Sequence record: PX670417.1
Source: a phage
Direction: 5' to 3' (one strand)
Length of the DNA: 64,000 bases
Numbering within the stretch: the stretch's first letter is position 1; each line of letters begins with the position of its first letter. The notes below the pieces were generated by a model. The model saw only the letters and a list, made by a program, of their open reading frames with translations. It did no database searches and was not told the DNA's origin. The translations under genes and the position numbers were made by a program. This document shows positions 2,198-36,289 of this stretch, piece after piece.

Positions 2198-4432
2198 CTA
2201 AACACCACAACCCTCGCAATAAGCATCTTGCAGTGCAGATTTACCTACACCAATGCGACTGTTAAGGTAGTACATGGTTTTCATACCTACTGAGTTAGCA
2301 TAAATCATGTACTTCAAAGCTTGAGCCAATGATACCTTCTTAGACTTTGCATAGTCAACATAGAAATCTGAAGAGATAGCTTGACCAGTGAACTTTTGAA
2401 CAATTGCATAACAATCAATCAGGTCAAAGGTGTCAATATCCCAAGCAATTTCATAGACATACTTCAACTCTTCGTAATCTGGAACAATAAACAGTACGTT
2501 ACCAGTTGCAGACTTTTTAGTTAAAATAAAGTCACGAATTGGATACAAGCCGTTTGTCGTATTAGTTGCCAGTGAAGAACTCTCATTAGGCATGTAAGCT
2601 TCTAATACAGAGTTACGGATTCCACCATTTTCTTTAATACGTTGTGCTAAGTCATCCCAATCATAACGAAGTTTTGCATCATGCTTCTCATCAATCTTCC
2701 TGTTAGCTGTCTTCGGAGGAACCCAACCTTCAGGATACTTAGTGAACTGCATATACTCAGGCACACCACGTTCTTTAGCAAGTCTTAAAGAGGCTTCGTG
2801 TAAGTAGTAAGAGTGCATTTCAGCAAGCTCATGGAGCTTTGTCTTACCTGCTCTTGAAGAATAGTTCACGTAGTTTTTCGCAAGGTAATGAGCCACATTT
2901 GTAAGGCCAATACCAACAGAACGACGCTTCTGAACATGGTTGCGCATCGACGGATACGGATAATCCATAAGGTCAATAACGGAGTCAACCATTGCAAGAG
3001 CATAATAAGCAACGTCAGCGTATTCATCTTCTGAAATTCTCCCTGCAACCAAACTAGCTAGGAAGCAAAGAGCTACCTCACCATCCTCTTTCACAGCGTC
3101 ATCTCTGTAAAGGTCTGTCTCTTTCTCAAAGCCGTACACTGGCAACACAATTTCCATACAAAGATTTGACATCTTCAAAGGCTCTTTAAATGGTGTATGT
3201 GTGTTTGCATTATTTGTGAAGAATGGATACACACGGCCTGTTGCATAACGCTGCTGGATAAACAGTTTAGCAATTTCACGAGCCTTTACTCGTCTGTGCT
3301 TAACACCTGAATGCACTGCATGACCAACTGCCATAGCAAACTCATCAGCAGATGCTGTGTAGAACATGTCATAGAGCTTTGGTGCATCCTTGTAAGAGAA
3401 TAACAACCAGTCTGTATCATATTGAACACACTGCCAGAAGTAATCATTTGTACCAAATGAGTAGTCCATCTCGTTAATACGTTTCGAAGGAACCGTTGTA
3501 GGGTGCTTCAAACGCAGTAAATCTTCAATCTGCGGGTCTAGAGCAGTGTAGAAGTTGTTAGCTGAACCACCACGACTCTTCTGTTTGTTTGCCTCTACAG
3601 ATGAGCGTACAAGCTTGTAATAAGGCAGTTTACCCATGTGCTCAATAGTGTTTTGACGGATACCATCACCAATAGTGCGAGTCTCCATCAGCATACCAAT
3701 ACCAGCTTGCTTTGTGGTCATGTCATAGGCAACCTTTGCAGCAATACCTAGAGACTCAGCGGTATCATTTGCCTTAATCAAACAGCATGACGCATAACCT
3801 GATTTAGTAGCTCTTAAACCATTCAGATAAGGCGTAGGAGCATTAATCTTCAGGTCAGATAGGTAAGTGTACAGCTTGATAACATCTTGCAGTCTACGGT
3901 GCTTTGGTTGCTTCTCAAAGGCTTTCATAGCCATACCCATAAACATAAATTGTGGTGACTCAAAAAGTCTTCCCGTTTTAATATCACGGATACCATACTT
4001 GTCTCTGAACTGTTTCAAAACTGCATAACCGTAAGAGATATCTTTTGAGTGCACAATGTACCCTTGCAGATATTCAAGCTCTTCCTGAGAATAGTCCATC
4101 TTCTCCCAAAGTCCTGCTCTCTCCATATTTTTAACGAAGGTAACCAGCGTAGGAACCTTAGTAAAGCCTCCAAAGGCTTCTTTGTAGATAATCCCCAGAA
4201 GTAGCCGTCCAGCCATGTCTGAGTACTCTTGAGTTTGTTTATCAACACAAACATCAATCATGGCTTGGTGCATCTCTTTTGTAGTGCAACCCTCGTAGAC
4301 ACGTTTCATGGCTTCCATAGTGACTTCTGACCAGATAATTCCACGCTTATCTGCCCATGATGCCCACTTATTCAGTCTTTCTGGGTCAAAGTTTACTACT
4401 GTACCGTTTGATTTTTTAATTGTCTTAATCAT
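2198..4432 (-). CDS. nrdA: ribonucleotide reductase class Ia alpha subunit (R1)
   Basis: 744 aa; recognisable NrdA-like sequence including active-site region SNLCMEI and C-terminal CEGCGV tail. Confidence 0.9.
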   Translation of the reverse strand: MIKTIKKSNGTVVNFDPERLNKWASWADKRGIIWSEVTMEAMKRVYEGCTTKEMHQAMIDVCVDKQTQEYSDMAGRLLLGIIYKEAFGGFTKVPTLVTFVKNMERAGLWEKMDYSQEELEYLQGYIVHSKDISYGYAVLKQFRDKYGIRDIKTGRLFESPQFMFMGMAMKAFEKQPKHRRLQDVIKLYTYLSDLKINAPTPYLNGLRATKSGYASCCLIKANDTAESLGIAAKVAYDMTTKQAGIGMLMETRTIGDGIRQNTIEHMGKLPYYKLVRSSVEANKQKSRGGSANNFYTALDPQIEDLLRLKHPTTVPSKRINEMDYSFGTNDYFWQCVQYDTDWLLFSYKDAPKLYDMFYTASADEFAMAVGHAVHSGVKHRRVKAREIAKLFIQQRYATGRVYPFFTNNANTHTPFKEPLKMSNLCMEIVLPVYGFEKETDLYRDDAVKEDGEVALCFLASLVAGRISEDEYADVAYYALAMVDSVIDLMDYPYPSMRNHVQKRRSVGIGLTNVAHYLAKNYVNYSSRAGKTKLHELAEMHSYYLHEASLRLAKERGVPEYMQFTKYPEGWVPPKTANRKIDEKHDAKLRYDWDDLAQRIKENGGIRNSVLEAYMPNESSSLATNTTNGLYPIRDFILTKKSATGNVLFIVPDYEELKYVYEIAWDIDTFDLIDCYAIVQKFTGQAISSDFYVDYAKSKKVSLAQALKYMIYANSVGMKTMYYLNSRIGVGKSALQDAYCEGCGV

Positions 4433-16223: not shown

Positions 16224-16229
16224 TTAGTA

Positions 16230-16259
16230 TTGACAAGGTGCTCATGGAAGAGTACCTTA
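16230..16259 (+). promoter_or_regulatory. promoter-like element starting with TTGACAAGGTG
   Basis: TTGACA at 16230-16235, 17-bp spacer, TACCTT; directly upstream of gene at 16285. Confidence 0.45.
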
Positions 16260-18738: not shown

Positions 18739-18749
18739 TGTAGCTCGGT

Positions 18750-18815
18750 CAGGTATGGTGCGGTGGTGTAAGGTGGTGTCAGGTGTAGTATGGTGCGGTG
18801 AGGTTCGGTATGGGT
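18750..18815 (+). repeat. GGT-rich degenerate short tandem repeat tract (R1a)
   Basis: ggtatggtgcggtggtgtaaggtggtgtcaggtgtagtatggtgcggtgaggttcggtatggg; 5-6 nt periodicity. Confidence 0.6.
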
Positions 18816-18819
18816 AGTT

Positions 18820-18852
18820 AGTCTCAGCTACATTAAAATGAGACTTATCTTT
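18820..18852 (+). other. conserved hairpin AGTCTCA-gctacattaaaa-TGAGACT followed by T-run (terminator-like), copy 1
   Basis: 7-bp stem; near-identical copy at 20329-20353; variant copy at 20197-20222 keeps pairing through compensatory changes. Confidence 0.55.
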
Positions 18853-18885
18853 TTAAAAGGTCTTTAAGAGGGTCTTTTAATAAGG

Positions 18886-18950
18886 TGTGGTAGGGTTAGG
18901 TGGAGTTGGGTATGGTGTGGTGTGGCACGGTGTGGGTGGATGGTAGTAGC
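18886..18950 (+). repeat. GGT-rich degenerate short tandem repeat tract (R1b)
   Basis: gtggtagggttaggtggagttgggtatggtgtggtgtggcacggtgtgggtgg. Confidence 0.6.
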
Positions 18951-18951
18951 C

Positions 18952-18967
18952 ACGTTAAAAATCTACC
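18952..18967 (+). other. hairpin GGTAG-N6-CTACC; counterpart at 20457-20482 is GGCAG/CTGCC
   Basis: Stem differs from R2 copy by a compensatory T/A to C/G change. Confidence 0.45.
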
Positions 18968-19025
18968 AAGTTTCTAAAGAGTCTTCTGTTGAGGGTTCTT
19001 TACAAACAACTTAACAATCAACTAA

Positions 19026-19631
<606 letters not shown>

Positions 19632-19633
19632 TT

Positions 19634-20074
19634 ATGAATACAAAAGCATTAGCAGCAAAGTTTAGTTACGGCGACACTGTATCACATTCCGAGATGGACA
19701 CCTTCTTAGGTATTGTGAAGCCAACCTATCAAGGTGACATTGTTAAGTACGAAGATGAAATGAAGGCTTATGCACTTACACGTCTAAACCGACTTGAGAA
19801 GTTTATTGAAAAGCTTCTTAAAGAAGAGAAGATTTATCTGGTTGCTTCAATGGGTGTTGGTTATCGTGTGGTTGAACCTAAGCATCAAGCAACTATTGCA
19901 AAACGCAAAATGTCTGGTAAGATTGGTCGAGCTTTAAAGCAAGCCACTCAAGCAATTGAGAATGTGAACACTATGGCGCTTAGTCATCAAGAACGTTCAC
20001 GACTGATTGAACAGCAAAACCATTTAGCTGCTATGAAAGCTAACATTAACAAGCAACGTAGAAAACCTTTCTAA
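19634..20074 (+). CDS. hypothetical protein
   Basis: ORF track 146 aa; followed by terminator. Confidence 0.55.
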   Translation: MNTKALAAKFSYGDTVSHSEMDTFLGIVKPTYQGDIVKYEDEMKAYALTRLNRLEKFIEKLLKEEKIYLVASMGVGYRVVEPKHQATIAKRKMSGKIGRALKQATQAIENVNTMALSHQERSRLIEQQNHLAAMKANINKQRRKPF

Positions 20075-20085
20075 GTTGACTAGGT

Positions 20086-20110
20086 AGCCTCTTCGGAGGC
20101 TCCTTTTTAA
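20086..20110 (+). terminator. rho-independent terminator (AGCCTC-ttcg-GAGGCT + T-run)
   Basis: Stem 20086-20101 then CCTTTTT; same hairpin sequence as terminator at 4456-4473 in opposite orientation. Confidence 0.65.
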
Positions 20111-20139
20111 AAGGTCTTTTAAGAGGGTCTTTTAATGAG

Positions 20140-20196
20140 GTAAGGTGCGGTCTGGCAAGGCATGGTATGGTTGGGTGAGGTGAGGTATGGGTAGTT
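20140..20196 (+). repeat. GGT-rich degenerate short tandem repeat tract (R2a)
   Basis: taaggtgcggtctggcaaggcatggtatggttgggtgaggtgaggtatggg. Confidence 0.6.
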
Positions 20197-20222
20197 AATC
20201 GGAGCTACATTAAAATTCGATT
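20197..20222 (+). other. variant hairpin AATCGGA-gctacattaaaa-TTCGATT
   Basis: Same loop as 18820 and 20329 hairpins but different stem sequence that still pairs (three compensatory differences incl. one G-T wobble). Confidence 0.55.
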
Positions 20223-20223
20223 A

Positions 20224-20262
20224 CATCACTTAAGAGTCTTCTAAGAGGGTTTTTAAGTGATG
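20224..20262 (+). other. long hairpin (10-bp stem CATCACTTAA / TTAAGTGATG), copy 2
   Basis: Same stem as 18700-18738; loop differs at a few positions. Confidence 0.5.
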
Positions 20263-20264
20263 TT

Positions 20265-20328
20265 CGGTAGGGTCTGGTAGGGTAAGGTCTGGTCTGGTAG
20301 GGTCTGGTAGGGTGAGGTATGGGTAGTT
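20265..20328 (+). repeat. GGT-rich degenerate short tandem repeat tract (R2b)
   Basis: gttcggtagggtctggtagggtaaggtctggtctggtagggtctggtagggtgaggtatggg. Confidence 0.6.
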
Positions 20329-20360
20329 AGTCTCAGCTACATTAAAATGAGACTTACCTT
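20329..20360 (+). other. conserved hairpin AGTCTCA-gctacattaaaa-TGAGACT followed by T-run, copy 2
   Basis: Near-identical to 18820-18852 including flanks (about 80 nt direct repeat 18806-18888 vs 20318-20399). Confidence 0.55.
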
Positions 20361-20394
20361 TTTAAAAGGTCTTTAAACAGGGTGTTTTAATAAG

Positions 20395-20456
20395 GTGCTG
20401 TATGGTGGGGTAAGGTAGGGTTAGGCGAGGTCAGGTGAGGTTTGGTATGGAAGGAT
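20395..20456 (+). repeat. GGT-rich degenerate short tandem repeat tract (R2c)
   Basis: gtgctgtatggtggggtaaggtagggttaggcgaggtcaggtgaggtttggtatgg. Confidence 0.6.
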
Positions 20457-20501
20457 GGCAGTAGCCTTATAAAAAATCTGCCAAATAAGCTATAAAATCT
20501 G

Positions 20502-20574: not shown

Positions 20575-20958
20575 ATGAAAAAGATTTTATTAGCTGCTGC
20601 AATGGTTATGGCAATGAATTTACCAGTCAATGCAACAGAACTCCCAAATGTGGACTTATCAGGTGTTCCAGAAGACACTTGCCAGATTGTTAAAGGTGTT
20701 TCTCTGGCTAATGGTGAGTTACTTAAACCAATCTCTGAAGAGTCTTTGACAGAGATGACTGATAAGGTAACTGACTATCAATATCGCGTTCTTGCAGAGT
20801 ATTTCCTGCAATCTGCAAATATTAAAGAGAAGCACCATGATGATATTGATGTACAGGCTATGCTCAATCATCGTATTCAGTTTAAAGAAGATTTGATGCA
20901 AAAAGCTATGTATAGTGTTGAGTATTTCTTAGAAAACAGAAGCTGCACAGGTATTTGA
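20575..20958 (+). CDS. secreted/periplasmic protein with N-terminal signal peptide
   Basis: MKKILLAAAMVMAMNLPVNA-TE signal-peptide-like N-terminus; 127 aa. Confidence 0.5.
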   Translation: MKKILLAAAMVMAMNLPVNATELPNVDLSGVPEDTCQIVKGVSLANGELLKPISEESLTEMTDKVTDYQYRVLAEYFLQSANIKEKHHDDIDVQAMLNHRIQFKEDLMQKAMYSVEYFLENRSCTGI

Positions 20959-20959
20959 T

Positions 20960-21172
20960 ATGGCTCTTAAAAAGTTACATCCCAGAAGCGGCTATGGTAA
21001 GATAATTGATGATGCAGATGGCTTTACAGTCTTTACAGTTATCTGTCAAGATGATTCACAGATTGAAAAGGCTCTTGATGATTATCTTAATGATGAACGT
21101 GAAAAGGTTAGGGCTACAAACATAGATTCATTGATTGACACTTCACGTAAACGGAAGAAGAAAGATGAATGA
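20960..21172 (+). CDS. hypothetical protein
   Basis: ORF track 70 aa. Confidence 0.4.
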   Translation: MALKKLHPRSGYGKIIDDADGFTVFTVICQDDSQIEKALDDYLNDEREKVRATNIDSLIDTSRKRKKKDE

Positions 21173-24062: not shown

Positions 24063-24100
24063 AAAAAAGGCTCCTTTTTACGGGAGCCTTAAAATTTTAT
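24063..24100. terminator. bidirectional rho-independent terminator (GGCTCC-N8-GGAGCC flanked by A-run and T-run)
   Basis: Between convergent genes thyA (+) and 24097-24468 (-). Confidence 0.6.
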
Positions 24101-24468
24101 TTTTCAGTATTCTTTGTGTTCTTTTCAGTAATAGCTTGGAGGGCTGATACTGATTGAGCCAGATTGTTAACACTATCAGAGAATTTATCAAGAGTCTTAG
24201 TAAGTTTTGCGTTCTCTCCCTTAACATTCTCTAACTGGACTTTCTGGTTCTCCATCCCTAGCTGAAGCAGCCTCATATCAGACTGTAAATCACGAATAGC
24301 TGAATAATTGCTTTTGGAATAATTATCTAGCTGTTGCAACTTTGTTGTGATAGACACTTCTTGTTTACCATCCGAAACTTGCATGGTGGTATACATCCCA
24401 ATAACACTAAAAATACCAACTACAATTGCACCAATATTATTTTTAAAAGCTTCCTCTAGCCACTTCAT
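24097..24468 (-). CDS. membrane-anchored coiled-coil protein (possibly lysis/spanin-like or fiber-associated)
   Basis: 123 aa; N-terminal TM segment IGAIVVGIFSVIGMY then coiled coil. Confidence 0.4.
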   Translation of the reverse strand: MKWLEEAFKNNIGAIVVGIFSVIGMYTTMQVSDGKQEVSITTKLQQLDNYSKSNYSAIRDLQSDMRLLQLGMENQKVQLENVKGENAKLTKTLDKFSDSVNNLAQSVSALQAITEKNTKNTEK

Positions 24469-24662
24469 TTATTCTCCCCCTTAAAAGCTTTTTCTAAGTT
24501 ATCTACGAACTCATCATCAATAGGTGTGTCTGTCTTACTCGCAAGGTATCTTGCAAGCCTAAAGAACACTTTCTCAATCATGTATTCACTTAGAAGGGAT
24601 AAAATGAGTTTCCAGAAGAAGCTACCTAGATTTTTTAGAAGAATTGCTAGGATTGTAGGCAT
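24465..24662 (-). CDS. small membrane protein (holin-like topology)
   Basis: 65 aa; one hydrophobic segment then charged C-terminus. Confidence 0.35.
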   Translation of the reverse strand: MPTILAILLKNLGSFFWKLILSLLSEYMIEKVFFRLARYLASKTDTPIDDEFVDNLEKAFKGENK

Positions 24663-24741: not shown

Positions 24742-24925
24742 TTAAGCAGTTCTTACCCAAGCCATTAACTTATAGAACTGGTTAGTAACACTGAATGCTG
24801 AACCAGAACCTGTACCACCAGTGTTACCACTAACTGTGTGGGTGTGAGCACCAATAGCTATTGCGTGAGCATGCTGCGCACCGTGGTCAGTATAACCACT
24901 TACAGAGTGGGTGTGGTCACCACCC
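24742..24925 (-). other. out-of-frame C-terminal extension of tail fiber gene (HxH-repeat tip) reachable by a 1-nt change in a G6 run
   Basis: Frame shifted relative to 24917-27094 encodes ...GDHTHSVSGYTDHGAQHAHAIAIGAHTHTVSG...AFSVTNQFYKLMAWVRTA, homologous to the C-terminus of fiber 27141-28289. Confidence 0.6.
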
Positions 24926-27094
24926 CCCATCAGTGTAACCCGGACCTGTACCGATTCTACCACCACCACCACCAGAATAGTGTGTAGAGTTCTGACCAAT
25001 CCACGAGATAGCGTGGTTGTGGTGACCAGCAGATGAAGTAGAACCACTTACAGCGTGTGAGTGAGCACCATTGACAACAGTTTCTTTTACACCATAATCA
25101 AAAGATGAAGTGGTAGCAGAGAAACTATGAGTGTGTGATGGTAAGTTACCAACAGCTAACGCCACAGAATCTGAACCACCAGTTGTAGCAACATCTGAAC
25201 CGTTTGCTGCTGCAATTCTGATAGTTCTACCAACACCATTGTTGAGGTACGTCCAAGTTAGACCAGGCAGTGCTGTATTAGGGTCAACATTACTGTTAAA
25301 CCATGTCACAATACCCACTGGATAGATTTTATTAAGGTCTGTAGAGTCACTTACTGCCTGTGCAATCTTCTGGTCAGTCTCTGCTTTAGTGTATGCACCA
25401 ATTTCTGAAGGGGTTGGTTTCTGAGCTTCGTTGTAAACCTTAGACCATCCAGCCTCAAAACCATGTGCGTCTCTGGCTGTTCTGTACCACATCCCACCAT
25501 TTTTATAATCAAACATCAATTGTGCAGCAGGTGTTGATGCTCCCGTATTAACGAACATATGCGAGACTAAACGGCTTGCCCCACCACCCTTAATCATCTC
25601 AATATAAATTCCTGAAGGTTGATTCCAAGCTACGCCACCATCTTCTTCTCTTACTGTGCCTCTGGCTGCTGACCAGATATACTTTGAATCGGTTGCAGAT
25701 TTAACGTAGTATCTAGCATCTAAGTTAGTCCAGTCTTGTGGTTGTACCTGTCCATTAATATACAGGCTCTTATTCACACTAACCAATGCTTGCTCTAGAG
25801 AAATTTGAGTGCCTGAAAAGCTGTTATTCAAGGCTACCACGTTAGAGCTAGCGCCTCCTACACCTAGCCACCACCTAGATACATTCGCAGTATCAACGCC
25901 ACGAATATACAAACCTTGATTTTGTGTCAAATTCTTAACAATCAACCCTTCATTGTTAGCAACAATAGTCTGTGTATTCGTGAAAGTATTAGACACATTA
26001 AGTTTAGCAAGATTACTCAGAGTTCCTGCTGGGATGTATCTAGAGTCAATATTAGTCCAATCTGAAGGCTGAACTTGTCCAGTGATTTTTACAGTCTTGC
26101 TGAATGTAGCACCAGACGAGTCTAAGACCATCGAGGTGTTGCCCTTATAATCGTGTAATGTGGTACTATAGTTTGCACTACCCTTACCAAGATACCACAA
26201 GTTATTATTTTCACTATCTTTTGCTAGGATGAATAAAGATTCATTTGTAGATTTATTTTGCAGCATGATAGCAGCAGAATTAGAGATGATGTTAACAGCA
26301 TTATTGAATGTATTTAAACCACTAAAAGTATTATTAGCAGTTAACTGTGCAAATCTCTGATTAGCTGCTGTCTGAGTAAAGTATCTAGCATCTAAGTTAG
26401 ACCAATCAGAAGGCTGTACTTGACCAGTGATTGCTAAAGACTTATTAACAGAGATATTGCTTGCAACAGTCACTGCTGAGTTGTATTTGTTGTTATACAG
26501 GCTTACTGCATCATCGCCATTGCTACCAATACCAATCCACCATCTAGCTGAACCATCTAGGTTTACACCCTCAATGTATTGTGCATTATTTGCAATCTGG
26601 TTTCTAAGGCGAAGTGCGTTACCATCACTTTGAATACTCTGATTTCTAGAGAATGTGTTTGTAACAGCAAGCCTTGCATATCTTGCATCATTCTCTTCAT
26701 TAGTTCTCATCCCAAGTTCATTAGGGCTTGGCTTATTCAGAGTATGATAAACAGTTGCCGACCTTGAAGCATCTGCAATAGTCAGTTTAAGACCATTTGC
26801 ATTGATTTTAAAAGTCTTTAAAACATCCCCCATAGTAATCTCAGAAGAGTCTGTAGGGTCAAATACGGCCTTACCACCATAAAGTAACTTGACAATTCCT
26901 AAGTCACCCGTCATAGTGCTACCAGCAATCTGGACAAATCTTTCTAGTTTAAAAGATGCTAAGAAGTCTTGATAGGTCATTCGACGGTCTTCATCACCTA
27001 ACATTTCAGGTCTCTTTTTGACCCTGACATGAAGAAGGTCGTCAGAACGGATTGTGTCGATTGAGTTTAATTCACTCAACTTGTAATCTGCCAT
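24917..27094 (-). CDS. tail fiber protein (as sequenced, truncated at homopolymer tract before conserved C-terminal tip)
   Basis: 725 aa; repeated SDWxNxDxRY motifs; ends GPGYTDGGW directly at C6 run 24923-24928. Confidence 0.65.
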   Translation of the reverse strand: MADYKLSELNSIDTIRSDDLLHVRVKKRPEMLGDEDRRMTYQDFLASFKLERFVQIAGSTMTGDLGIVKLLYGGKAVFDPTDSSEITMGDVLKTFKINANGLKLTIADASRSATVYHTLNKPSPNELGMRTNEENDARYARLAVTNTFSRNQSIQSDGNALRLRNQIANNAQYIEGVNLDGSARWWIGIGSNGDDAVSLYNNKYNSAVTVASNISVNKSLAITGQVQPSDWSNLDARYFTQTAANQRFAQLTANNTFSGLNTFNNAVNIISNSAAIMLQNKSTNESLFILAKDSENNNLWYLGKGSANYSTTLHDYKGNTSMVLDSSGATFSKTVKITGQVQPSDWTNIDSRYIPAGTLSNLAKLNVSNTFTNTQTIVANNEGLIVKNLTQNQGLYIRGVDTANVSRWWLGVGGASSNVVALNNSFSGTQISLEQALVSVNKSLYINGQVQPQDWTNLDARYYVKSATDSKYIWSAARGTVREEDGGVAWNQPSGIYIEMIKGGGASRLVSHMFVNTGASTPAAQLMFDYKNGGMWYRTARDAHGFEAGWSKVYNEAQKPTPSEIGAYTKAETDQKIAQAVSDSTDLNKIYPVGIVTWFNSNVDPNTALPGLTWTYLNNGVGRTIRIAAANGSDVATTGGSDSVALAVGNLPSHTHSFSATTSSFDYGVKETVVNGAHSHAVSGSTSSAGHHNHAISWIGQNSTHYSGGGGGRIGTGPGYTDGGW

Positions 27095-27140: not shown

Positions 27141-28289
27141 TTAAGCTGTTCTCTGCCATACATACAATACGAAGGATGGCTGTTCAACGCTAAATGCTTG
27201 ACCAGAACCAGTTGTGCCAGTTGTGCCAGAGTGAGAATGCTCACCTGCTCCGGTTACTGTTACTGTTGCTGAGTGGTTGTGAGAACCAATTGCAACAGTG
27301 TGGCTGTGAGCACCAATCCCAACCGTGTGATTATGCGCACCAATTGCTACAGAGTGAGTGTGGTTGTTAGCTGTTGTCAACGTAGCTCTTGGGTCATAGC
27401 TTGCCCCCTCAACCGATAAACCTCTCCAGCCACCATCAGCATAGCCACGGTTAATGAATGTTGTTTGTGTTAAGCCAGCAGCACTGGTTGTTCTGTTGCC
27501 ATAGTCGTAAGTAGATACGGTCTTGGTTCCGTAGTCAAACGTTGTAGTCCCTTTAGTGCCATAATCAAAAGCACTGATAGAGGCCGTTGCACCATGAGTG
27601 TGACCACCACCAGTGACGTACACTGAGTGGGTATGTGCAGGGATGTTATTAACCGTCAGTGCAGCAGTCTGTGAACCAAACGTTGAACCAACTGGCCTAG
27701 AATCACTATCATAACCTACAAGTGCTCTCCCTTTTGAGACTAACTCCCAAGTACCCCCACAAATTAAATATGTAGAGGGGTTTGCAGGATTCATAGAGAG
27801 ATGGATAGTACCTACTGGATAAGAAGCCTGAACAGCCTTGTACAAGTTATTTACTGCTCTTGCTGTAGCATACTTATCTGCATCTTCATTATAAAGGTTA
27901 GATGTTGTCCAGTTCTGGACATTACTTAAACCAACCTGCGCCTTAGTTGTATTGTGTGGGTTACTCTTGTCATTAATATGCTGTTGAATAAGACTATTAA
28001 CCTCTACTGAAGACATAATCTGTAGATTTTTTCTTGCCTCAGCTACATTAACAATATCTGATAAGTTATTTGCAGCAACTAACTGAAGAGCATTAATAAC
28101 ATTATCTAAACCAATTTGTGTTTTAGTAACACCATGAGGGTTATTTCTTAGGCTTGAGTGTGGAGCAAGTAATTGCTCAAGAGTACATCTCTTATCCTCA
28201 ATACCCTGCTTAAGATGGAAGATATCACTAAGGTCAATTGGTAAGGCTGCTTGAGGCAAGGCACTAATTTGAATTTCACCTACTGCCAT
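27141..28289 (-). CDS. tail fiber protein with His-rich (HxH repeat) C-terminal tip
   Basis: 382 aa; repeated NPHxxTKxQxGLxNV motifs; C-terminal HTHSVAIGAHNHTVGIGAHSHTVAIGSHNHS. Confidence 0.65.
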   Translation of the reverse strand: MAVGEIQISALPQAALPIDLSDIFHLKQGIEDKRCTLEQLLAPHSSLRNNPHGVTKTQIGLDNVINALQLVAANNLSDIVNVAEARKNLQIMSSVEVNSLIQQHINDKSNPHNTTKAQVGLSNVQNWTTSNLYNEDADKYATARAVNNLYKAVQASYPVGTIHLSMNPANPSTYLICGGTWELVSKGRALVGYDSDSRPVGSTFGSQTAALTVNNIPAHTHSVYVTGGGHTHGATASISAFDYGTKGTTTFDYGTKTVSTYDYGNRTTSAAGLTQTTFINRGYADGGWRGLSVEGASYDPRATLTTANNHTHSVAIGAHNHTVGIGAHSHTVAIGSHNHSATVTVTGAGEHSHSGTTGTTGSGQAFSVEQPSFVLYVWQRTA

Positions 28290-28291
28290 TA

Positions 28292-36289
<7,998 letters not shown>

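Follow-up and report, generated by a model that had tools for sequence, protein, structure and literature searches.

A one-base frameshift at a six-G run divides the predicted long tail fibre gene of a phage assigned to Felixounavirus

Small changes in short nucleotide runs are a described route to the disruption of phage fibre genes. Hendrix and Duda reportedly noted such a lesion, a frameshift in the stf gene of lambda PaPa, in 1992. The side-fibre genes of phage lambda are lost within a few plate passages, mainly through indels in short homonucleotide runs (PMC2762979). In such cases, an accessory fibre gene that is whole in wild relatives is cut into two open reading frames (ORFs) by the gain or loss of one base in a short run, and for the plate-selected 'GP' mutants of lambda the loss of the side fibres was shown to be real, viable and selected (PMC2762979).

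Other runs can act as reversible switches. In phages T2 and T4, single-base runs of at least six nucleotides mutate at a rate of about 3e-4 per run and can switch reversibly (preprint 10.1101/2025.10.21.683753). The A-runs of T2 agt (9 A) and T4 rIIA lie within genes, and a change of one base in either direction toggles the product. Sorensen et al. are said to have described, in 2021, hypermutable polyG tracts of ~9 or more G in the receptor-binding genes of Campylobacter phages, which behave in the same manner. A frame can also be restored during translation, as in prfB (RF2), in which a G-rich stretch lies upstream of a UGA-C stop and is accompanied by a +1 shift.

The closest known counterparts of the gene considered here are gp27, the long tail fibre (LTF) of phage Bas63 (JohannRWettstein), and the receptor-binding tip of T4 gp37 (PDB 2XGF). 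In the Bas63 type of fibre, the chain extends to a head domain and then doubles back, with an HHxH motif adjoining the head, while gp25 serves as the LTF platform on the baseplate (PMC12609058). In this article, a split LTF gene is described from a 64,000-nt stretch of phage DNA (referred to as the window) and compared with these systems.

The split gene and its genomic setting

Judging from sequence comparison, the window derives from a Felixounavirus (a Felix O1-like phage) that is ~96% identical to Bas63; the phage collection contains no identical record, and its closest ones show ~96% identity. The order of genes is the same as in Bas63, dune and Felix O1. In Bas63, this order runs from the gp25 platform through the gp26 short fibre and the gp27 long fibre to a 65-aa ORF and a holin-like ORF. 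The LTF gene occupies positions 24742..27094 on the minus strand and was assigned on the basis of Pfam domains, synteny and identity to Bas63, with ~94–96% DNA identity wherever the region aligns; by these comparisons, it is the orthologue of Bas63 gp27 and Felix O1 ORF184. Its length of 2353 nt equals 3n+1, in line with a +1 frameshift. The neighbouring short tail fibre gene (27141..28289, minus strand), orthologous to Bas63 gp26, is intact, encodes 382 aa and bears a paralogous HxH tip ending in ...AFSVEQPSFVLYVWQRTA. An intact 100-aa ORF (28292..28594, minus strand) holds the position of Bas63 gp25 by synteny, and therefore the attachment site of the LTF is still encoded.

A continuous frame of ~780–860 codons is expected of a Felixounavirus LTF; it is absent here, as the frame breaks after codon 724. 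The minus strand around the break reads ...GGT TAC ACT GAT GGG GGG TGG TGA CCA CAC..., with a run of six G (G6; C6 on the plus strand) at 24923..24928. The shift follows Gly724, after which one Trp is added and a premature TGA (24919-24917, minus strand), created by the shifted frame, is met three bases past the run. Thus, as the initial annotation had proposed, the gene is broken at the G6 run into a 5' ORF of 725 codons (27094..24917, minus strand), which ends in GYTDGGW before the TGA. The final W725 is non-native because GGT GGT is read one base late. The view that GYTDGGW might be the true ending of the 0 frame, given that the short fibre contains GYADGGWRG, was considered and rejected, as relatives read GYTDGGGDH.

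From the tract onward, the +1 frame reads GGGDHTHSVSGYTDHGAQHAHAIAIGAHTHTVSGNTGGTGSGSAFSVTNQFYKLMAWVRTA and then stops. The 3' part (24742..24930, minus strand) comprises 62 codons when counted from an incidental ATG at 24930-24928, and corresponds to the descending strand of the fibre needle together with the C-terminal strand. It contains H727xH, H741xH and H750xH, followed by a conserved C-terminal strand, ...AFSVTNQFYKLMAWVRTA. A gene caller might instead report a mechanical 101-codon ORF with a GTG start at 25047 (24742..25047, minus strand), in which the first ~39 codons are meaningless, being head-domain DNA read out of frame. The initial annotation had taken the downstream frame for a genuine HxH fibre C-terminus homologous to that of the neighbouring fibre, and this is borne out: the LTF tip matches the C-terminal tip of the 382-aa short fibre with 30% identity over ~230 residues (E = 6e-14).

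It had also been stated that one fewer G would fuse the two frames. Removal of one G does give a single 783-aa ORF without an internal stop, and the restored protein is collinear with the intact fibres (783–784 aa) of dune, Bas63 and Felix O1, with its last 33 residues (codons 751–783) identical to theirs. The functional form of the gene is this fused frame of 783 aa. Across the junction, the fused-frame peptide reads ...GYTDGGGDHTHSVSGYTDHGAQ....

Fibre architecture and the consequences of truncation

The 725-aa ORF contains three copies of PF20744 (gp37_trimer; E = 5e-67) and one of PF12604 (gp37_C; E = 1e-14) in Pfam. In the restored frame, six HxH motifs occur, at 654, 678, 691-694, 727, 741 and 750, including an HHxH motif near the head. 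In gene position, Pfam domains and these motifs, the locus resembles Bas63 gp27. It differs by the extra G after codon 724 and the resulting division into a 725-aa frame and a 62-codon frame. Additionally, the rod (codons 100–500) and a 13-codon patch in the descending strand are alleles different from those of Bas63, reflecting mosaicism.

An AlphaFold2 monomer model of a 96%-identical intact orthologue (P0002), built from an alignment of 38 sequences, had pLDDT below 50 over residues 583–783. Since the tip model was unusable, the topology was taken from the published description of Bas63 and from an alignment to the tip of T4 gp37 (2XGF), which the restored protein matches across both needle strands (E = 1e-7). 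According to these sources, the 5' ORF spans the baseplate-binding N-terminus, the beta-helix rod, the collar, the ascending strand (H654xH, H678xH and HHNH at 691-694) and a putative head domain. The latter, placed by the 2XGF alignment at residues 696–725 (24920..25009, minus strand; ISWIGQNSTHYSGGGGGRIGTGPGYTDGGG), lies upstream of the break. Ascending and descending HxH strands around the head are present together only when both frames are joined.

The initial annotation had held that the frameshift separates the body of the fibre from its receptor-binding tip. This part is inaccurate, as the break coincides with the end of the head domain according to the 2XGF alignment and the Bas63 topology (PMC12609058). 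The 725-aa product therefore probably retains the ascending needle strand, with three HxH motifs, and the receptor-contacting head domain. What is lost is probably the descending needle strand, with the other three motifs, and the C-terminal strand of the collar.

Origin of the extra G

The tract was compared across 41 phage records that share its flanks, and in all 41 the region is one base shorter than in the window. Among four aligned relatives, there is either a run of five G (G5) or no tract; the three closest read GAT GGG GGT GGT (G5). Over 81 nt, the extra G is the sole difference between the window and both dune and warpig. Felix O1 has no G run at the site and other orthologues read DAGG, DAAG or DANG, so that the tract is not conserved within the genus. 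At the protein level, 119 of the best 120 homologues are 779–856 aa long, and the one exception (745 aa) lacks only the N-terminus; truncation at ~725 aa occurs in none of them, and the closest two, 97% and 96% identical, are both of 783 aa. The G6 pattern is absent from IMG/VR, in which a pattern tolerant of tract length has one match, with G5; the same tolerant pattern has no match in the JGI metagenomes. Nothing was found in complete E. coli genomes, and none of the three proteins queried occurs in a collection of 15 billion proteins. The homologous fibres of related phages compared here, to which the initial annotation had pointed as a check, thus lack the extra base, which is unique to the window among them.

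The downstream frame contains no stop, its three HxH motifs are intact, and it shows no decay. The divergent patch at residues 734–746 is shared with the intact fibre genes of SUSP2, phiSUSP1 and PC79-13, and is a normal allele. The idea that this patch lies between two compensating frameshifts was rejected, as it is not a shifted form of the dune sequence and occurs in intact genes. The lesion is recent, given the undecayed frame, the identity of the last 33 residues to those of relatives and the normal status of the patch.

Homopolymers were surveyed across the window, which holds 49 runs of six and 185 runs of five. No stretch of G or C other than the C6 at 24923 reaches six, whereas composition-matched shuffles contained 5.6 such runs on average, with one or none in 3 of 200 shuffles; G/C runs are depleted in this genome. 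When Bas63 and a 97%-identical ENA contig served as references in an indel scan, the extra G of the LTF gene was the only net indel inside a supported gene, relative to both, whose length was not a multiple of three. Genes remain in frame throughout the 48 A/T runs of six and 175 A/T runs of five.

The expansion from G5 to G6 is unique and very recent, because it is absent from relatives, the tract is unconserved, the RNA downstream shows no structure and no other supported gene is frameshifted. The extra G is most probably a sporadic slip, either a recent mutation or a base-calling error, rather than an evolved switch or a recoding signal. Three mechanisms had been offered initially, namely sequencing error, slipped-strand phase variation and programmed frameshifting. 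Only sequencing error and plain slippage survive. Programmed frameshifting lacks the conservation that defines it, with no extra base in the 41 relatives, no truncation near 725 aa among the best 120 homologues and no RNA structure behind the site; an evolved form of phase variation has poor support, given the uniform G5 of relatives and the many orthologues without any tract.

The account tentatively preferred here, to which we give close to an even chance, is that the extra G is truly present in the phage DNA as a non-programmed replication-slippage mutation from G5 to G6. Replication would have slipped at the G:C run that is most prone to it in this genome. As judged from the Bas63 and T4 gp37 structures, the product would keep the rod, collar, ascending strand and head, and would lack the 59 residues that return down the needle, with three of the six HxH motifs, into the collar. 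With these residues lost, the trimeric six-stranded needle could not close, and therefore the fibre would probably be missing or non-functional. The phage would then depend on its intact short fibre. Alternatively, it could make use of rare full-length fibre, supplied either by reversion of G6 to G5 or by tRNA-Gly slipping +1 at a low level on GGG-GGG-U.

As in the lambda cases, a short-run indel splits a fibre gene that relatives carry intact; the lambda losses were studied as viable, selected mutants, whereas the lesion in the window is known from a consensus sequence. Several observations hint that the LTF may be dispensable in this genus. Bas63 virions carry 0–6 LTFs (PMC12609058). According to PhageMaP, the end of the 'uniformly essential' block of Bas63 lies near 21,000, close to the start of gp27 at 20,694; gp27 is not mentioned by name there, and trans-complementation can confound a pooled screen of this kind. 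Moreover, disrupted LTF genes occur elsewhere: that of L014 has an in-frame nonsense codon, that of L013, on a contig of 87 kb, a +2 change within a (CA)n run, and that of L010 a -2 change in CACACAC. As these lie in natural consensus sequences, LTF-defective Felixounaviruses seem to be viable. Some of these lesions stem from metagenomes, whose assemblies may contain errors of their own. On the other hand, the fibre is intact in all compared relatives from phage records, which argues that it is of importance and that isolation does not routinely select for its loss. In addition, the uniqueness of the lesion, the intact homologues, its recency and its position in the run are just what an error in base calling or assembly would produce as well.

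Such an error is the main competitor of replication slippage: the phage would have G5 and an intact 783-aa fibre gene, with the extra G stemming from homopolymer miscalling or consensus polishing. This is a substantial possibility, though one rated below an even chance. The lesion looks like known homopolymer assembly errors: the longest G:C run of the window differs in length by a single base, in one record (0 of 41 flank-sharing relatives, with truncation in none of the best 120 homologues), in a gene that is conserved and intact in the compared relatives and followed by a frame without any decay. Poor Felixounavirus records do exist, for instance the public relative MG969414, which has 160 gaps in 4.8 kb. 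It is unlike such errors in that no second frame-breaking indel was found in supported genes over 64 kb against two references, although a homopolymer-prone chemistry should leave more. Furthermore, errors in nanopore consensus sequences are mostly deletions and Illumina consensus is seldom wrong at 5- to 6-mers, so that an insertion at a run of five is atypical of both.

For annotation, the two ORFs represent one frameshifted LTF gene, and not a short fibre accompanied by a small 'His-rich protein'. Before host range is inferred from the genome, or phages are engineered with it, the site warrants a check of the reads. A real extra G, together with the three disrupted LTF genes elsewhere, would be evidence that the long fibre of Felixounavirus can be lost, in parallel to the laboratory loss of lambda side fibres. 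It would also bear on whether LPS recognition and the triggering of contraction fall to the long or to the short fibre. No new mechanism is revealed by this frameshift.

Switching, recoding and a two-piece fibre

An evolved phase switch or a programmed frameshift is unlikely, with a slim chance at most. The stronger of these accounts, itself improbable, treats the G run as a contingency locus that toggles reversibly between ON and OFF, which would allow the population to keep both rapidly adsorbing (G5) and fibre-less (G6) members as a hedge. G6 reaches the length of at least six used to define such runs (10.1101/2025.10.21.683753) and would readily revert to G5, the loss of accessory fibres can benefit a phage on plates (PMC2762979), and a second G5/G6 difference among relatives is found at 24476-24480. 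Nevertheless, the ON state has only G5, which is under even this loose threshold, and 41 of 41 relatives stand at one shorter length, without polymorphism. The tract is also absent from many orthologues, G/C runs are depleted in the genome, and runs of this kind are under-represented in tail fibre genes (10.1101/2025.10.21.683753). As in T2 agt, T4 rIIA and the Campylobacter tracts, the run lies in a gene and a change of one base alters the product. Those tracts are longer, in the Campylobacter receptor-binding genes reportedly much longer; they vary in length within and between stocks, and their switching has been measured.

If a switch did operate, G6 phages without the fibre would adsorb slowly, escape decoys and diffuse further, while fibre-bearing G5 progeny would be regenerated at ~1e-4 to 1e-3 per replication. 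An enterobacterial myovirus would then carry a contingency locus in one of its receptor-binding genes. Further slip sites might be provided by the (CA)n stretches that the CAC-ACA-CAC codons of HxH motifs form, as the +2 and -2 lesions in such stretches of two other assemblies illustrate.

Programmed recoding, in which a +1 ribosomal frameshift (or transcriptional slippage) on GGG-GGG-U yields the full-length fibre, is very improbable. Its merits are that tRNA-Gly, on G GGG GGU, can move downstream by one base and still pair perfectly, which restores the wild-type DGGGD, that the codon GGG is rare in E. coli, and that a UGA-C stop in weak context follows two codons on, in an arrangement loosely reminiscent of prfB as commonly described. 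However, the frameshift is conserved in no orthologue among the 41 flank-sharing records and the best 120 homologues, and no stimulatory RNA structure is predicted downstream of the tract (MFE z = -0.10). The differences from prfB are extensive: the G-run abuts UGG-UGA and so lacks what is reportedly a 3-nt Shine–Dalgarno spacing, there is no slippery P-site codon of the CUU type at the stop, tRNA-Trp is unable to re-pair at UGG-U, and an autoregulatory logic is missing. Moreover, six G are too few for efficient slippage of RNA polymerase.

The proposal that the 725-aa chain and a 62-aa peptide join non-covalently as a two-piece fibre, the peptide starting at the ATG at 24930 through termination-reinitiation in the overlap ATGGGGGGTGGTGA, has a cut at a domain boundary (from head to descending strand) and an ATG 8 nt upstream of the TGA, reportedly within back-scanning range, in its favour, but it is scarcely credible, as no Shine–Dalgarno sequence precedes the ATG, the same GATGGGGG occurs in relatives, where it is out of frame and the ATG hence incidental, and no relative has a comparable split at the site.

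Seven ORFs elsewhere that contain only the fibre tip were also inspected as a possible recurrent split, and were set aside; two of them trace to (CA)n indels, and the others to a deletion, a nonsense codon, a gap in a scaffold, the end of a contig and a record full of errors, with none of the seven broken at the G-run. The threefold 'tail fiber protein' annotation in pSJ21 is an artefact of the record origin only.

Identity of the gene and nature of the break

The phage is a Felix O1-like myovirus of the genus Felixounavirus. Its best match is Bas63 (Escherichia phage JohannRWettstein; 95.7% identity over 24 kb), and gene order is identical in the window, Bas63, dune and Felix O1. Bas63 gp27, which a 2025 cryo-EM study recognized as the 630-Angstrom long tail fibre (LTF) (PMC12609058), is orthologous to the broken gene. 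In the naming of that study, the short fibre gp26 corresponds to the 382-aa neighbour, and the upstream 100-aa ORF occupies the place of the LTF platform, gp25 (PMC12609058). The 725-aa ORF contains three gp37_trimer repeats and gp37_C (Pfam); the protein is typical of the Felixounavirus LTF / T4 gp37-tip family except that one defining feature, the continuous frame, is broken. The gene (24742-27094) is also a mosaic. Codons 1-100 and 600-733 are near phage dune, codons 100-500 differ strongly from it and are nearly identical to an ENA metagenome protein (P0001; 97% overall), and codons 734-746 match SUSP2, phiSUSP1, PC79-13 and a Logan contig.

Across the tract, the minus strand reads ...GGT TAC ACT GAT GGG GGG TGG TGA CCA CAC CCA... 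The G6 homopolymer (24928-24923, minus strand; C6 on plus) precedes the TGA (24919-24917) closing the 725-codon ORF, whose start is at 27094. The next frame, shifted by one base, has no stop until 24742 and reads GGGDHTHSVSGYTDHGAQHAHAIAIGAHTHTVSGNTGGTGSGSAFSVTNQFYKLMAWVRTA* from the tract onward. Together the two frames occupy 27094..24742 (2353 nt, 3n+1), and removal of one G creates a single 783-codon ORF. The initial annotation had described the ORF end at G6, the open shifted frame and the fusion of both by a one-G deletion, and this description of the sequence was correct in every detail; the homology it claimed between this C-terminus and the neighbouring 382-aa fibre was confirmed (30% identity across the entire tip, E = 6e-14). 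The shifted 0-frame ends in GYTDGGW* (24917-24940), resembling GYADGGWRG of the short fibre (27420-27450, residues around 285). This likeness was rejected as evidence that the 0 frame is genuine; it is a coincidence from GGT GGT read one base late.

The break is not shared with relatives among 41 phage records, the best 120 protein homologues, and the ENA and IMG/VR contigs. Comparison with homologous fibres, as proposed initially, found the extra G absent: each of the 41 records that match the 96 nt surrounding the tract is shorter by exactly one base, and over 81 nt that G is the sole difference of dune and warpig from the window. By direct alignment, EcF-vB, dune and Bas63 read GAT GGG GGT GGT GAC CAC (G5), and Felix O1 has no G run at this position. 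The same one-base difference occurs in a 97%-identical ENA contig and in the IMG/VR contig. The two closest homologues (97% and 96% identity) are 783 aa each, and 119 of the best 120 have 779-856 aa, the remaining one (745 aa) being without its N-terminus only. Many orthologues have DAGG, DAAG or DANG in place of DGGG; therefore, the G run itself is not conserved. Decay of the downstream frame was not seen in its stops, HxH motifs, last 33 residues or divergent patch: it is stop-free and retains its three HxH motifs, its final 33 residues match those of dune, Bas63 and Felix O1 exactly, and the sole divergent patch (codons 734-746) is a normal allele found in intact genes of SUSP2, phiSUSP1 and PC79-13. 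The lesion is therefore either very recent or not real.

Other disruptions of LTF genes were found in four assemblies. L014 (ENA ERZ28622315, near 3650) has an in-frame nonsense codon (AYT*AETDQ), and L012 (ENA ERZ28588945, 3600-4000) an internal deletion. L013 (ENA ERZ27237821, an 87-kb contig, 3885-3905) gains 2 nt in a (CA)n run formed by the CAC-ACA-CAC codons of an HxH motif (SHTHSF), and L010 (Logan SRR28345919, 1042-1076) loses 2 nt in a CACACAC located eleven bases 3' of the tract position. This suggests that fibre-defective Felixounavirus variants occur in nature and that HxH codons make small dinucleotide slip sites. Another Felixounavirus record, L011 (GenBank MG969414.1, GCA_027590645.1), is riddled with indels (160 gaps in 4.8 kb against the window), with fibre genes split into many small ORFs, and is unfit as a reference.

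The truncated product

The Bas63 LTF carries six HxH motifs, HHxH being the one adjoining the head (PMC12609058). In the restored 783-codon protein, H.H occurs at 654, 678 and 691-694 (HHNH), then at 727, 741 and 750. In an alignment with the T4 gp37 tip (2XGF, E = 1e-7), the frameshift lies where the head-domain stretch ends, just ahead of the first HxH of the returning strand. With the break at this place, the 725-aa product probably retains the rod, collar, ascending strand and head, and probably lacks 59 residues, made up of the descending strand with its three HxH and of the C-terminal strand. The proposed separation of body from receptor-binding tip is wrong anatomy, since by the 2XGF alignment the break follows the head-domain stretch. 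Judging from published structures, the truncated product would be unable to form the needle. An AlphaFold2 monomer was useless for the tip (pLDDT below 50 for residues 583-783).

Origin of the extra G

Sequence alone cannot decide between a real mutation and an artefact. A real slippage mutation has nearly an even chance, and a sequencing or assembly artefact a slightly smaller one. The artefact reading agrees with an extra G that is unique to this record and lies at a homopolymer, with the undecayed downstream frame, and with conservation of the LTF gene. Against it, more than 230 runs of five or six have left the rest of the assembly clean, and insertion at a 5-mer is an unusual error for Illumina or nanopore consensus. 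When the whole window was aligned to Bas63 and every net non-3n indel listed, 21 groups were obtained, 18 of them intergenic, inside the tRNA cluster, at or beside a stop codon, or no more than 30 nt from an annotated start. Two more fall in hypothetical ORFs of 36-48 codons among tRNAs, leaving that at 24923 alone in a well-supported gene; a 16.6-kb comparison with the ENA contig had the same outcome. The window holds 48 A/T 6-runs, 175 A/T 5-runs and ten further G/C 5-runs; no run of any base reaches seven, and among G/C runs only the C6 at 24923 has a length of six. G/C runs of at least six are depleted (1 observed, 5.6 expected; one or none in 3 of 200 shuffles). In a sequence that is otherwise clean, the frameshift therefore sits at the one G:C site most prone to slippage.

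A second G-run length difference lies at 24476-24480 (C5 on plus), with G5 in the window and G6 in IMG/VR contig L007. This run is five codons before the stop of a 65-aa minus-strand ORF (24662..24465) and also inside the ribosome-binding site (Shine–Dalgarno) of the next, holin-like gene (ORF 24468..24097); the change affects last residues only (KGENK* versus KGGE*).

Other observations speak for a real mutation. LTF lesions in the independent assemblies L014, L013 and L010 are not homopolymer miscalls. In phage lambda, a few passages on plates sufficed for the side fibres to be lost; of 19 stf mutants, 15 were frameshifts, nearly all of them in short homonucleotide runs (PMC2762979). Bas63 particles bear zero to six LTFs each (PMC12609058). 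Additionally, a description of the Bas63 knockout map puts the end of its 'uniformly essential' block near 21,000, roughly at the gp27 start, without naming gp27; trans-complementation can confound pooled screens of this type. If real, the lesion operates as the lambda PaPa stf frameshift does; if not, it resembles a routine homopolymer miscall. It is nothing novel. Its value is for annotation: the two ORFs should be treated as one frameshifted gene, at a site to be checked against reads. It also suggests, if only modestly, that these phages may be able to do without the long fibre.

Phase variation of the fibre tip through an evolved contingency switch is improbable: the working allele is no longer than G5, 41 relatives show no variation in tract length, and many orthologues lack the tract. 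A preprint on phage contingency loci, concerned with runs of at least six and reporting about 3e-4 mutant reads per run, found such runs under-represented in tail fibre genes (10.1101/2025.10.21.683753). A G6 would readily revert, so the lesion would be reversible in practice, which does not make an evolved switch; all that the tract shares with phage contingency loci and Campylobacter-phage polyG tracts is that it is a mononucleotide run in a phage gene. Programmed frameshifting as the source of full-length fibre is highly improbable. Its defining feature, a shift conserved in orthologues, failed across the 41 records and the best 120 homologues, and the 141 nt around the site contain no stimulatory RNA fold better than shuffles (z = -0.10). 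In the tract region, neither the spacing nor a slippery codon resembles that of prfB. Should tRNA-Gly slip by +1 on G GGG GGU, wild-type DGGGD would be restored exactly, and UGA-C is a weak stop, so low-level +1 leakiness is conceivable. A fibre working in two pieces is just as improbable as programmed frameshifting.

Other differences from Bas63

The putative homing endonuclease beside the Bas63 DNA polymerase gene (bas63_0046, 30207-30734) is absent from the window at 16224-16230, where the alignment skips from Bas63 30744 to 30210 across six window bases. GGT-rich short tandem repeats at 18740-18930 and 20266-20460, such as GGTAGGGTCT (20266-20322), flank about 1.3 kb (18925-20224) without a Bas63 counterpart, in which a 146-aa ORF (19634-20074) has no Pfam match. 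Bas63 carries longer versions of these repeats, with 25-nt and 5-nt indels there in the alignment to the window.
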